In this document: positions 3,184 to 53,553 of the stretch, in pieces
How the letters are laid out: each line of letters opens with the position of its first letter
Numbering within the stretch: position 1 is the first letter of the stretch
IMG/VR virus record: IMGVR_UViG_3300024331_000007
Span: 1-64,000 of that record
Reading direction: 5' to 3' (one strand)
DNA length: 64,000 nt
Source: a virus
Taxonomy: Duplodnaviria; Caudoviricetes
The notes under the pieces: model-generated
What the model was told of the DNA's origin: nothing
Databases searched by the model: none
What the model saw: the letters and a program-made list of their open reading frames with translations, nothing else
Position numbers and translations under genes: made by a program

Positions 3184-4482
3184 ATGATAAATGAAATCAA
3201 TAAACTAATTGAACAATATGGCCCCAAAAGTTTTGGCAGACTTGCATCTTGTAGACCAAATTTGAAATTATTCCTCCAACACTGGAATGAAACCCGAAAT
3301 TGTCCAACGATAGGAGAACAATTTTTCTGCATCCACTATAATATAGAACCACCAAATTGTTTTTGTGGCAATAAATTGCTGTTCAAAACCTATGTAAAGG
3401 GATATTGGCCCACCTGTGGTACGAAGGAATGCAAGGCGAAAAGTCAGGCGAAGAAACTATCTCAATTCTGGAAAAACAATCCAGAAGTAAAGAAAACAAT
3501 GAGTGCGAATCAACGAAATACTTGCTTGGAGCGATATGGCGTTGAAAACATAATGCAGAATACTGAAAAGCTAAACGAGATTCGTAGTAAACTACAAGAA
3601 AAAACCGGTTATGCGTCGCCATTGGAGAATCCATTAATACAAGAGAAATGTAAGAAGACTACTAAAGAAAAATATGGTGTCGAACGACCATTTCAATCAA
3701 AGAAAATTCGCAACAAGGCAGTCGAATCATATATAAGAACTCACGGATATGCACCTAATATGCAAGAAGCACGAATCGCAGCAGAGAAAAATAGAAAATT
3801 TAGACGAGAAGAATATGAAACAGAAGTTATTACCAATAGAATACAAACAAGACGACAATTAAGTTCAAGCTACCAACGATTAGTCAATGAAGTTAGGCCA
3901 TATACCTATTTGATAAGATTCAAACCAACTGGGCAAGTTTATTATGGGGTTCGTGCGGGAAATGTGTCTCTGGGTTTAACGCCGATGCAAGATTTTATGA
4001 TTCACTATCAAACAAGTTCAGATCAAATTTTATCTAGGTTAGAAGATCACGGATTAGAATTGTTTGAATATGAAATACGGAGAACTTTTGACACCGAAGA
4101 ACAAGCATATTATTGGGAACAGACAGTTCTTAGACGATGTAAAGTAGTTGGAGATAATAGATGGTTCAATCAAAATGCCTGTGGGTATATTATTCCTACA
4201 GCAGAGGGTCGTAAGAAAATTAGTGAGTTTCATAAAGGAAAACCTAAATCAGAGTCGCAACGGAAAAAGATGAGTAAATCTCATCAAGGAAAAATTAGAA
4301 CCGCAGAACATTGCACAAATCTTAGCAAATCGCAAAAAGGCAGAACATATCCAGATCGCCAAGGAGAAAAAAGCCATAATTTCGGAAAGATTTGGATTTC
4401 CAAGAAAGGAAAATCGGCCCAGATTCATAAGGAAAATTTAGAAGAATATTTGCAACAGGGGTGGAAGAAAGGTAGAAAGTAA
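3184..4482 (+). CDS. putative homing endonuclease (Seg-like GIY-YIG core + NUMOD3 repeats, N-terminal YGVE-repeat domain)
   Basis: PYTYLIR...YYGVR variant GIY-YIG; HKGKPKSESQRKKMSKSHQGK NUMOD3; ERYGVEN/EKYGVERP repeats. Confidence 0.75.
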   Translation: MINEINKLIEQYGPKSFGRLASCRPNLKLFLQHWNETRNCPTIGEQFFCIHYNIEPPNCFCGNKLLFKTYVKGYWPTCGTKECKAKSQAKKLSQFWKNNPEVKKTMSANQRNTCLERYGVENIMQNTEKLNEIRSKLQEKTGYASPLENPLIQEKCKKTTKEKYGVERPFQSKKIRNKAVESYIRTHGYAPNMQEARIAAEKNRKFRREEYETEVITNRIQTRRQLSSSYQRLVNEVRPYTYLIRFKPTGQVYYGVRAGNVSLGLTPMQDFMIHYQTSSDQILSRLEDHGLELFEYEIRRTFDTEEQAYYWEQTVLRRCKVVGDNRWFNQNACGYIIPTAEGRKKISEFHKGKPKSESQRKKMSKSHQGKIRTAEHCTNLSKSQKGRTYPDRQGEKSHNFGKIWISKKGKSAQIHKENLEEYLQQGWKKGRK

Positions 4483-7150: not shown

Positions 7151-7407
7151 TAGTTGGCATCCTCAAATTGAGCAAGAACGGATTTGGTTAATCTTTCCGA
7201 GTGAGAAAATTCCCATTCCCATTCGTCATGTGGCCCTGACTTAAGTATACGCTTAGCCACAAACGATTCAACATATTTTTCCAGCCAGATAACTGCTCCA
7301 GCCTTATCACTGGTGTTTCTTTTTAGTTGAGTGGGAAACCAAGCAAACTGGATAACGTCCATCCTCGCGCCGTGTTCAGCTATTTTCTGTTCTTGTTTCA
7401 GAATCAT
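7150..7407 (-). CDS. hypothetical protein, WLE[K/R]Y family copy 3
   Basis: Tandem paralog. Confidence 0.6.
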   Translation of the reverse strand: MILKQEQKIAEHGARMDVIQFAWFPTQLKRNTSDKAGAVIWLEKYVESFVAKRILKSGPHDEWEWEFSHSERLTKSVLAQFEDAN

Positions 7408-14184: not shown

Positions 14185-14262
14185 TGGTCGAAACGGCAGG
14201 AATCGAACCTACTTTTTCCAGCCCTCGTGTTGGCTGGTGCCACGCCATTCGGCCACGTAACG
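14185..14262 (-). tRNA. atypical/pseudo tRNA (Pro-like acceptor, 8-nt anticodon loop)
   Basis: C1:G72, A73, CCA; CCAGCC-AACACGAG-GGCTGG. Confidence 0.55.
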
Positions 14263-27104: not shown

Positions 27105-27949
27105 GTGTTCCTTTCTTAACCAACACGAACCACAGCATTGCGATTTATATTTGGACCCCATTCAGGTGTGTAGTAACCATCAAAATGCTTTTTCGTGATT
27201 TTTGTTACGTGTGATACGGCCTCTGGATAATCAGTTCCTCCAGTAATCACAGTCGCATCCTGCGGCATCTTTTGCAATTCCAAAATCAATTCGCCAACTG
27301 TCATATTTCACCGCTTTCACTTTCCAAAATGTTCAGAACTTTTTCTTCGACGGCAAGGATTGGACACCATTTCGGAATGGGATTGATTTCACTGTCCCAT
27401 TCAACGTAACCAGAAGTTCCACGGAAGCCGTGTTCCGCTTTTTTGTCAGGTTTCAGTTTACAAAAATAGTCTGTAGCATATCCAGAACCCGGCGTGTGTG
27501 CTGAACCAGCGTAAGGACAGCAAATATTGTCATCTCCGTTGTTAACGCATCGATCAATGTTTATAACAATTTTTGCCACAGTAAGCCTTTCAAGATTCTA
27601 ATTTTTTCAGAAGCTTTTCTTGAATATCCAACCAAGCATATTTCCATGATTCTTCAATTGATACTGTCGATGATCCCAATAAGGTTCTCGGTCTACCAAA
27701 CCAATTTGTTTTCGGAGTTTCGGTGTGGATTTCCCACTGAATGCCAAATATATCTGGGCGACATTTGGCATCAGGATAGATCATCTTGACATTTTCTTCA
27801 TCTGTCATAATTGATTATATCACACAAAACACCAAAGGCCAGCTAAATTTTAGCTGACCAGCATGGAACAGTTTCGAACCAATTACAGTGTAAACATCAA
27901 TAAAGTTTGTATTTAATACACTGAGATTACATGTATTATATTGACACCC

Positions 27950-28856
27950 GATGGATTATGCCGTCTCTTGCGAAGACCGTCCGTGAGGACTTCGGTTTCC
28001 CATCACATCCACTAAGCCCTTTATTCAAGGTATCCTAGTCTGTCAACATCGTCGCCTTTTTTGAAGTCAGGCAGTGGACTTGTCTGATAAGGTTATTCTA
28101 CGCTCTCCATCCCGTCTGTTTTGCGAACAGTTCGAAGCCGCTAAGCCCCTACGAAATTTCCTGCACAAACTATCGCAACCTTGCGAGTCTTGATAGACTT
28201 GATTCTCTTGCGAGTCAAGCATTAGACGATTTTCGCCTTATCACGGAGCAGACTTTGCTTTTTGTAAGAAACAGTCAGAATCGAACTGACTACCCTCTGT
28301 TTAATAGACAGATGCTCTACCAATTGAGCTTTGTTTGCAACCCACATCATGTGCTGCTCCAGTTGCCAAGCCAGATTTTGTCCAGCCTGATACAACACAT
28401 GACATACCTTTCTTCTGCGGAATACTCAGTGGTACTTCACGAAAAATGTGCTTGCGCCCATTCTCCGTTCATACTGCATTTCAGCCCTAGCTTGCGAAGG
28501 CTCAGACCAAAACACTACCCTTTCCATTACGGAATAACAAGTTGATACGATAGGAAGACAGCATCACCTGTTTCTTTTCAATTGCCAAAGTTCCCTATCC
28601 CGAAGGCGTCGGCTTATAAACAATTGTTCTTTCCCTATCACTTGCGTCCTCTTTACAACCACCGCTTTTTTCAGTGATCGCCGTCTCGCGACGGATGGGA
28701 GGCTTGCATAGACGGACTAATTGCTTAGCGCAAGTGCGTAGGCTTCCTTGCTTTGGGCACCTCACGGTGCTTATCCTAATGGGGCTATGCCCCCAATCTT
28801 GTTTTCAAACATCTTTGCGAATCACCATATGATTCGGTTGCGTCAACTCAGCAACA
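27950..28856 (-). ncRNA. large structured RNA, GOLLD-like, with embedded tRNA-like domain
   Basis: ~900 nt with no credible ORF, many GCAA/GAAA/GTGA/GCGA-capped hairpins, own promoter, tRNA-cluster context. Confidence 0.65.
28266..28338 (-). tRNA. tRNA-Asn-like (ATT) inside the large RNA, no CCA
   Basis: AGCTCAATTGGTAGAGC D arm, TCTGT-CT ATT AA-ACAGA, GTTCGATTC. Confidence 0.65.
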
Positions 28857-28861
28857 TTTCA

Positions 28862-28890
28862 ATTCTACACATATTACATTTGTTTTTCAA
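28862..28890 (-). promoter_or_regulatory. sigma70-type promoter for the large RNA
   Basis: TTGAAA-17 nt-TAGAAT with extended TG. Confidence 0.7.
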
Positions 28891-29772
28891 GCAAATTATG
28901 TAGAAATTTGGACCCGTCCGACCATCCAATCATTTTCTGGATTGAAACAGTATTTCTTTTATCTTACATCTTGTTCAGTAGTTTGTCAACTACTATTTTA
29001 CTTTTTTCTTCCGACTGTTTTTGACCAGTGCGCAAAACGACTATATGCACGATCAACGGCACCTTCGTACCTTTCCATCAGAAAGATAACCAATAATACA
29101 AATAGCGAAACACCTACCAATACAGTAGCAATCATAAATGCTAAGCCTAGTGGCATGTATGTTTCCTTTCCAACTTTCTTAGAATATCGTAGTTTGATTC
29201 GTTTGTCAACTACTTTCTGAAAATTATTTTTCGATCTGCTGTAAATTCCAATTCACCGTCTGCAATCATTCGTGACAATGAGCTTCTCACATCATTATCA
29301 TAATACGGAGGGACGTGATCGCCTAACATATCCAGCAATTCTGTTGGATGCAATGGATTTTCTTTATGCATAAGGACAATCTGCAAAATACGTGTTTCAA
29401 CTGGAACAGGGTCGCCTTCTAAAACCCATTTCATTATTGGTTTTTGAACGAATTGTCCCATCACTTGTGTTTACTCTTTCGATTGTTTTCGGCCCACTTC
29501 CTAATATCACGAGCCGCTTTCCTGTATTCTGCGGGAGAGTGCGCCCGTACAAATTTTGTATCAATGTCAGCAATCATCAGTCCGATTGCCTGATATTCTT
29601 CTCTCATGTCGGAAATCAATTGAAGTTTTCGCAATGTCGGTAACTTTGTATATTGTGCCAAACTTGACGTAATGCTTGCTTCCTGTGAATCCATGCGAAT
29701 ATCTATACGTTTCATGGACCGATCCTTATTCCGTCTCGGTCCAGAATAAACTGGACCGATTCGAGGTTGTGC

Positions 29773-52674: not shown

Positions 52675-53113
52675 TCTCGCCAACAAGTTTGATCTTGTCC
52701 AGAATCACATCAATATTGATTGTGTTCCAAACACCGGGATGCAACGGTTTTGGATATTTGTCTAACTCTGCCCAAGCATATCCGCTATGTTCTGAGTTTA
52801 AGATAGGTATGAACTCATTTCGAATCACGAAAATGAAAGAATGGTATGTGAACTCTTCATCCATGCTGGTAAAGGTTTCCAGAGGAATATGTTTCAGGAT
52901 AGTCGGATATGATCCTAATTCTTCAGACAATTCTCTGTGAAGCCCAGTCATAGTGTTCTCGTCTGAATGCAGTTTTCCACCGGGCATCCCCCATGTTTCT
53001 TTTGTGCGTGTGTTATTACGCAATAGAAATAGGAATCGTCTGGTGGTTAAACTGTAGAATAGAACACCCGCTGCAATCATTAGTATGCAATCTTCTTTTG
53101 CGATTTTGACCAT
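52664..53113 (-). CDS. Nudix hydrolase
   Basis: PGGKLHSDENTMTGLHRELSEELG. Confidence 0.88.
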   Translation of the reverse strand: MVKIAKEDCILMIAAGVLFYSLTTRRFLFLLRNNTRTKETWGMPGGKLHSDENTMTGLHRELSEELGSYPTILKHIPLETFTSMDEEFTYHSFIFVIRNEFIPILNSEHSGYAWAELDKYPKPLHPGVWNTINIDVILDKIKLVGEIIS

Positions 53114-53553
53114 TCCTGAAAACTGGCTCTCGCTTCTCGTCCAAGCAACTTAACAGTTGGTAACGTTCTTGCTTCTGGCTTCTTTCTGAACTCTTTGTAG
53201 ATGAACTCATCATCAAAACCAATTAACGCTGCTTCTGCCGCGCTACATCCATAGTAAATCTTATCCAATCTAGCCCAATAACAAGCAGCCAAACACATCG
53301 GGCACGGTTCACAGCTTGTATAAATCTCACAACCCTTCAGAGAAAAGTCACCAAGAATCTGGCAGGCCATACGGATAGCTACAATTTCTGCATGGGCAGT
53401 TGGATCAAATCTTGATGTGACTGAGTTTGATCCATAGGCAATGATTTCGCCGTCCTTCACAATAACTGCTCCGAAAGGACCACCTTGATTTGAAAGTACA
53501 TTGCGAGTAGCCAGAGCAATTGCTTTACGCATGTAGTCTGATTTGTTCTGCAT
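53080..53553 (-). CDS. nucleoside/guanine deaminase (CDA fold)
   Basis: GGPFGAVIV, HAEIVAIR, CEPCPMC. Confidence 0.92.
   Translation of the reverse strand: MQNKSDYMRKAIALATRNVLSNQGGPFGAVIVKDGEIIAYGSNSVTSRFDPTAHAEIVAIRMACQILGDFSLKGCEIYTSCEPCPMCLAACYWARLDKIYYGCSAAEAALIGFDDEFIYKEFRKKPEARTLPTVKLLGREARASFQEWSKSQKKIAY

Follow-up and report, generated by a model that had tools for sequence, protein, structure and literature searches.

A probable full-length GOLLD RNA with a tRNA-shaped module in its linker from a T4-like soil phage

What GOLLD RNA does has been an open question since 2009. The solved GOLLD cages have yielded only guesses, one of which is that tRNAs in the linker of the RNA are cargo. 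A tract of phage DNA that combines GOLLD-like features with an internal tRNA raises this question in a concrete form. Is the tract a single GOLLD RNA, and is the tRNA within it a real tRNA to be released or a tRNA-shaped domain of the larger molecule? The tract lies in the window, the whole stretch of 64,000 nucleotides that was analyzed, taken from the start of an IMG/VR virus record of 359,890 bp (IMGVR_UViG_3300024331_000007) that is estimated to be ~90% complete. A Gp23-family capsid gene (318 bits) marks the carrier as a T4-like phage. The record holds 52 tRNA genes, 44 of them within the window, and the tract is thus found in the phage setting near tRNA genes that is a feature of the GOLLD family. 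The preliminary description had noted that GOLLD RNAs lie near tRNA clusters and sometimes contain tRNAs, which agrees with these counts and with the position of the embedded tRNA in the linker, as in published GOLLDs. The bacterial RNase P class A model of Rfam also matches in the window, at 19454-20103 on the minus strand (118.3 bits, cut-off 100); this match spans 650 nt against a model of 367 positions.

The Rfam GOLLD model RF02032 matches the minus strand of the window from 28405 to 27918 with 194.5 bits (E = 2.6e-53). The gathering score is 150 bits, and the match covers all 416 model positions (1-416). It is the only RF02032 match in the 359,890-bp record. The preliminary description had called the family from overall pattern and had suggested the Rfam GOLLD and ROOL models as a check. 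When these models were run, GOLLD matched over its full length and above its cut-off, which shows the family call to be right, and no ROOL match was found in the window, either at the gathering score or at E values up to 1. The fallback of a new large non-coding RNA was dropped because of the full-model match, together with the presence of the tRNA in the linker of the model. As a family call, the assignment is ordinary.

Other properties of the tract were also described before the family was known. On the RNA strand (minus), the region from ~28855 to 27918 is free of ORFs longer than 58 aa, as had been noted; a 96-aa ORF with a TTG start in the tract is on the opposite strand. The position given earlier is real, but the RNA lies on the minus strand and extends at its 3' end to 27918, beyond the 27950 stated before. 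GNRA-capped stems are present, but the statement that the tract is full of them was too strong. Six GNRA tetraloops closed by at least three pairs were counted, as opposed to 2.4 expected from dinucleotide shuffles (P = 0.03), and with at least four closing pairs, 37 of 762 same-size windows of the genome reach the count of the tract.

Upstream of the tract is a sigma-70-type promoter-like site, TTGAAA-17-TAGAAT (28890..28862, minus strand). The sequence is there as the preliminary description had it, it agrees with the sigma-70 consensus at 10 of 12 positions, and its presumed use would set a start at ~28855. The region has 10 promoter-like sites, compared to 4.1 expected. Just upstream on the same strand are two more strong sigma-70-type sites at 28961-28989 and 29181-29209 (TTGACA-17-TAAGAT and TTGACA-17-TATTCT), each ahead of small ORFs. 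The predicted start is followed by a possible 5' leader (28855..28796), recognized from its fold as two small hairpins and lying outside the RNA contig cover in relatives. The variable GOLLD 5' domain (28795..28406), which is beyond the Rfam model, comes next and is defined by compensatory pairs and RNA contigs. The first hairpin of the Rfam model, P14, is 62 nt long (28405..28344). The RF02032 alignment shows that its loop, L14, keeps the A-run as CAAAA at 28380-28376, and the L14 A-run is a conserved contact of the cage, bridge B6 (10.1101/2024.12.08.627333).

In the model, P14 is followed by an unpaired linker and then by a multi-helix core. Here the linker slot, unpaired model positions ~63-135, is occupied by a tRNA-shaped module with a CU-AUU-AA loop (28338..28266), which was detected by ARAGORN and by the Rfam tRNA model. 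The module begins 5 nt after P14 and ends directly against the motif ACAAAAAGCAAAGUCU, which opens the conserved 3' core (28265..27918, model positions ~136-416). Two core loops hold insertions of 29 nt and 9 nt that form extra hairpins, a difference from other RF02032 GOLLDs. Behind the core is an intrinsic-terminator-like hairpin of 10 pairs with a T-rich tail (27859..27827; hairpin and T-run at 27859..27837), 59 nt past the end of the RF02032 match. Transcription would start from the RNA's own sigma-70-type promoter and end at this hairpin. A loop-loop pairing between GCUUAGC of the core and GCUAAGC of the 5' half was also considered and was dropped, because the predicted fold already has the second site within a stem and the numbering of the helices could not be transferred. 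From this arrangement, the minus strand very probably specifies one non-coding RNA of ~860-940 nt, a full-length GOLLD with a predicted promoter of its own and a terminator behind it, which would form a cage by analogy.

The part of the RNA that could still speak for a different identity is its 5' half, the ~400-450 nt upstream of the RF02032 match. It has no Rfam model, and its folding energy is undistinguished (z = -1.1). These properties would suit a tract that is not GOLLD at all, namely a new large RNA, a series of small RNA genes that are each independent, or else a coding sequence or a leader. We regard this as highly improbable. The whole-length match exceeds the curated cut-off of Rfam, all ORFs on the RNA strand are at most 58 aa, and the substitutions found in relatives are compensatory in helices rather than codon-like. 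A joint fold with the 5' halves of three other GOLLDs gave no consensus by which it could be matched to the canonical P1-P13, and only a GCA..GAAAG junction is common to them.

Covariation, on which the preliminary description had made its reading depend, came out positive. The changes shared by relatives were compared with an MFE fold computed from the present sequence only. Four compensatory pairs are found in the 5' domain (28490/28501, 28560/28569, 28581/28624 and 28584/28621). Among the 26 shared changes in 28401-28625, pairing is retained by 4 double and 11 one-sided changes and lost by 3, and another 4 fall at unpaired positions. At least four compensatory pairs would arise by chance with P ~0.0002 (20,000 permutations). 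A fifth pair is in P14, where G-C at 28382/28374 is U-A in relatives, and a sixth is in a long-range core helix, where A-U at 28241/28087 is G-C in runs X3 and X8, a pair that was placed by hand on the RF02032 alignment. The total against close relatives is therefore 6 (four in the 5' domain, one in P14 and one in the core). The helices of the 3' domain also show several one-sided wobble changes, and its double changes are limited to two because the relatives are close. The structure of the 5' half is under selection. Since compensatory changes occur in the 5' half, P14 and the core, the whole stretch behaves as a single structured RNA that is selected as such.

The same relatives provide the evidence for a transcript, the other point on which the earlier reading hung, and the RNA-library evidence is positive in the form of their contigs. 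Of the 31-mers of the stretch, 13-20% recur in each of 16 runs of soil, peat and rhizosphere metatranscriptomes. The contig comparison covers three RNA runs, one from each of three studies, and one DNA run; a further 13 RNA runs, with 13-18% of the 31-mers of the GOLLD, stand outside the contig evidence. The contigs of relatives are 90-97% identical and cover 27920-28799, and the flanks (27700-27919 and 28800-29000) are bare. Assembly depth is ~10-70 in the soil and peat metatranscriptomes of the three studies. Six long contigs are wholly within the RNA, with their own ends at 27927, 27947 or 27952 on one side and at 28756-28779 on the other. Three contigs (592, 550 and 470 nt) connect the 3' core with the 5' domain by way of the tRNA. 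This joining of the three parts is a further argument against a string of separate genes or a non-GOLLD RNA.

Because these contigs belong to relatives, they support presence and continuity, rather than the exact ends, strand or level of the RNA of this phage. A gap of ~75 nt separates their ends from the promoter-based start (28855), and the bare segments 28800-28855 and 27876-27919 are neutral as to the transcript ends of this phage. Within this scope, the GOLLD appears to be made as one long RNA, judging indirectly from the relatives' contigs.

The layout of a tRNA in a GOLLD linker is already published, and what is new here is only the details. The linker faces the interior of the cage, and tRNAs sometimes lie within it (10.1101/2024.12.08.627333). 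The Mycolicibacterium GOLLD has a tRNA-Phe in J13/15 (PMC12990946), and a mycobacterial GOLLD (M. aubagnense) holds a 'pseudo tRNA' gene (PMC6582537). The RNA described here is like both, and like a third GOLLD detailed below (L125), in having the tRNA slot between P14 and the core. Unlike those linker tRNAs, its module combines an AUU anticodon, with A34 in a split codon box, with a glycine-tRNA-like body. It resembles the solved GOLLDs, the env-38 14-mer (PDB 9MEE) and the Streptococcus agalactiae 12-mer (9L0R) (PMC12990946), in its full 3'-domain match, the A-rich L14, the variable but structured 5' half, the linker after P14 and a phage location near tRNA genes. However, its 5' half cannot be aligned with the 5' halves of other GOLLDs, and its carrier, in contrast to those of the solved GOLLDs, is a 360-kb T4-like soil phage with an RNase P RNA match. 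ROOL is comparable in its large size, its location close to tRNAs in phages and its cage, which also has the linker inside, but its fold is unrelated.

The embedded tRNA (28338..28266, minus strand) scores 56.1 bits with the Rfam model (cut-off 29) and is called Asn-ATT by ARAGORN. A central cloverleaf with an ATT anticodon and no CCA had been seen in the preliminary description, and it is located here. The cloverleaf is regular, with a canonical T-loop, GG in the D-loop and an anticodon stem of 5 pairs. The acceptor end is different. CCA is not encoded, as opposed to 40 of the 44 window tRNAs, which encode it. Position 73 is U, and both regular tRNA-Asn(GTT) genes have G. The top of the acceptor stem consists of G1.U72 and a C2xC71 mismatch, whereas the acceptor stems of both tRNA-Asn(GTT) genes have 7 pairs and no mismatch. 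Identity to the other window tRNAs is at most 66%. The closest database match is the tRNA-Gly(TCC) of Erwinia phage Kwan (82% identity), which shares the D-arm, anticodon stem, T-arm and U73 and differs in the anticodon loop and acceptor stem. A blastn search of the GOLLD stretch against GenBank phages matched only in the tRNA, again to Erwinia phage tRNA-Gly.

AsnRS identity involves G73 and a GUU-type anticodon. The embedded tRNA, with U73 and A34, has neither of these Asn identity features. Because its body is tRNA-Gly-like and not tRNA-Asn-like, the known identity set of neither synthetase is present, and by identity rules the tRNA would probably fit neither AsnRS nor GlyRS. A34 anticodons of split codon boxes are nearly absent in nature; over-expression of Asn-tRNA(AUU) slowed the growth of E. 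coli, and engineered A34 tRNAs were matured and translationally active in this bacterium (10.64898/2026.05.15.725136). Among relatives, 28242-28373 has zero shared substitutions, compared to 25 in the adjoining 225 nt of the 5' domain, in a comparison that counts shared differences only and with 7-10% divergence elsewhere in the RNA. The tRNA shape is therefore strongly conserved.

The slot itself is more variable. One relative's RNA contig has 68 other letters in the exact place of 28266-28338, and a second contig reads on beyond 28262 into a T-arm that differs from the one here. A sister GOLLD (L067/L120, record IMGVR_UViG_3300046642_000884; RF02032 135 bits) is the only sequence-level relative in the collections searched; the two RNAs have the GCTTAGCGGC loop block in common, together with the final ~100 nt of the 5' domain. 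Its slot differs from that of the present phage in holding a tRNA that is back-to-front (L120:1840-1990, minus strand, near 57880-58030 of the record), with an ordinary tRNA-Val upstream. The permuted order opens with the T-arm GGGTTCGATTCCC, the 3' strand CGCCCGC, T and CCA; a spacer hairpin of ~50 nt then separates these from the matching 5' strand GCGGGTG, the D-arm and the anticodon arm. When rejoined in silico, the pieces give an ARAGORN tRNA call. L125 and L126 are mainstream viral GOLLDs. The L125 GOLLD (226 bits) has a tRNA-Gln(CTG) at 7252-7324 (minus strand) that stops 4-5 nt ahead of the core motif and, like the tRNA of the present phage, has no CCA, U73 and an open 1:72 position. 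In the L126 GOLLD (180 bits), the slot contains only a T-arm-like hairpin, CCGGTTCGACTCCGG, near 4335-4352 (minus strand), which abuts the core motif. Thus, tRNA-related sequence is present in the linker of all four GOLLDs inspected.

Searches for more members of this subfamily returned little. A loose motif scan of viral contigs produced 118 loci, almost all by chance, and the sister locus L067 was the sole real one (nhmmer and motif screen). A subfamily-specific probe of viral contigs found L067 alone, and its three metagenome matches were rejected as chance, non-GOLLD sequences. Searches with neighboring proteins gave no related loci, a probe made of the anticodon arm and T-loop of the embedded tRNA had no match in viral contigs, and a consensus-core pattern search retrieved two mainstream GOLLDs and nothing else.

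By analogy with env-38 and S. agalactiae, copies of this GOLLD would assemble into a closed RNA cage of 10 to 14 subunits. Linkers face the lumen in the solved cages, so the tRNA modules would be expected to face it as well. What the module does there is less certain. We lean slightly toward a module that stays covalently tethered as a tRNA-shaped domain, which we judge likelier than its release as tRNA-Asn. This preference derives from the missing CCA, U73, the G1.U72 and C2xC71 positions, and the tight fit between P14 and the core motif. A CCA-adding enzyme was looked for in the phage and none was found, the L125 tRNA-Gln(CTG) has the same end features, and the mycobacterial 'pseudo tRNA' gave no separate Northern blot signal (PMC6582537), all of which point in the same direction. 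On the other hand, no part of the RNA varies less among relatives than the tRNA, whose T-loop, D-loop and anticodon arm follow the canonical form. Its codon, AAT, is the commonest in the long ORFs of the phage (38 per 1000). Host enzymes could add CCA, and the phage has its own RNase P RNA.

These counterpoints are the basis for a possible, though doubtful, alternative in which the module is a real tRNA that can be released, and the GOLLD transcript is its precursor or store. In this scheme, RNase P, either that of the host or that of the phage (19454-20103), would cut at G1, a 3' endonuclease would cut after U73, the host would add CCA, and the tRNA would read AAU. The good cloverleaf, the zero shared substitutions in the tRNA, the rank of AAT among phage codons and the RNase P RNA match in the same window are all in keeping with release, as is the ability of engineered A34 tRNAs to mature and translate in E. 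coli. The slot anticodon varies between GOLLDs (AUU, CUG and Phe; PMC12990946), as is expected of real cargo. Against release, nearly all phage tRNAs encode CCA and this one does not, U73 replaces the G73 of both regular Asn tRNAs, position 2:71 is mismatched, and the body is that of a tRNA-Gly rather than a tRNA-Asn. Both tRNA junctions are bridged by RNA contigs, and excision would cut the GOLLD in two. The impaired growth of E. coli with over-expressed Asn-tRNA(AUU) also speaks against a free tRNA of this type.

The combination of a strongly conserved tRNA shape and no features for charging may instead suggest a multicopy bait, displayed on or in the cage. Its target would be a factor that recognizes tRNA, for example an anticodon nuclease of the host, a modification enzyme or the ribosome. 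The solved cages imply multivalent display, and ribosome binding in GOLLD pull-downs has been cited (10.1101/2024.12.08.627333). We consider this role quite unlikely, as the linker in the solved structure points into a closed lumen, where it is less accessible. A broader but unlikely idea is that the linker of GOLLD is a slot with exchangeable contents, namely special tRNAs that the phage has to keep out of circulation, of the A34 Asn type here and back-to-front elsewhere, with 10-14 copies held in the lumen until RNase P or opening of the cage frees or exposes them. If true, GOLLD would act as a vault for tRNAs that are hazardous or serve as decoys, or would dispense them in a timed manner.

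Whether the module is tethered, as we slightly prefer, or released, this locus offers handles for testing the cargo guess. Its slot tRNA is conserved and lacks CCA, a sound acceptor end and a known synthetase identity set. The other and permuted slot tRNAs of relatives and the nearby phage-encoded RNase P RNA are further handles, and so are the relatives in soil and peat RNA libraries, which can be mined for processing ends.

Several features of the surrounding window also concern tRNA. The phage has three A34 tRNAs: Leu-AAG (24431-24524), Arg-ACG (26587-26661) and the GOLLD-embedded AUU. A deaminase-fold ORF of 157 aa (53080-53553, minus strand) adjoins a ThyX-like gene, and its top NCBIfam match is TadA, the tRNA A34 deaminase, at 76.7 bits, which is under the cut-off of 150. 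Four unusual tRNA calls are present on the minus strand (24352-24428, 24878-24953, 25202-25279 and 14185-14262). Two of these have the anticodon CTA and are amber readers, one has a four-base anticodon (cacg), and one has TTA, with an acceptor stem that is unpaired as delimited.
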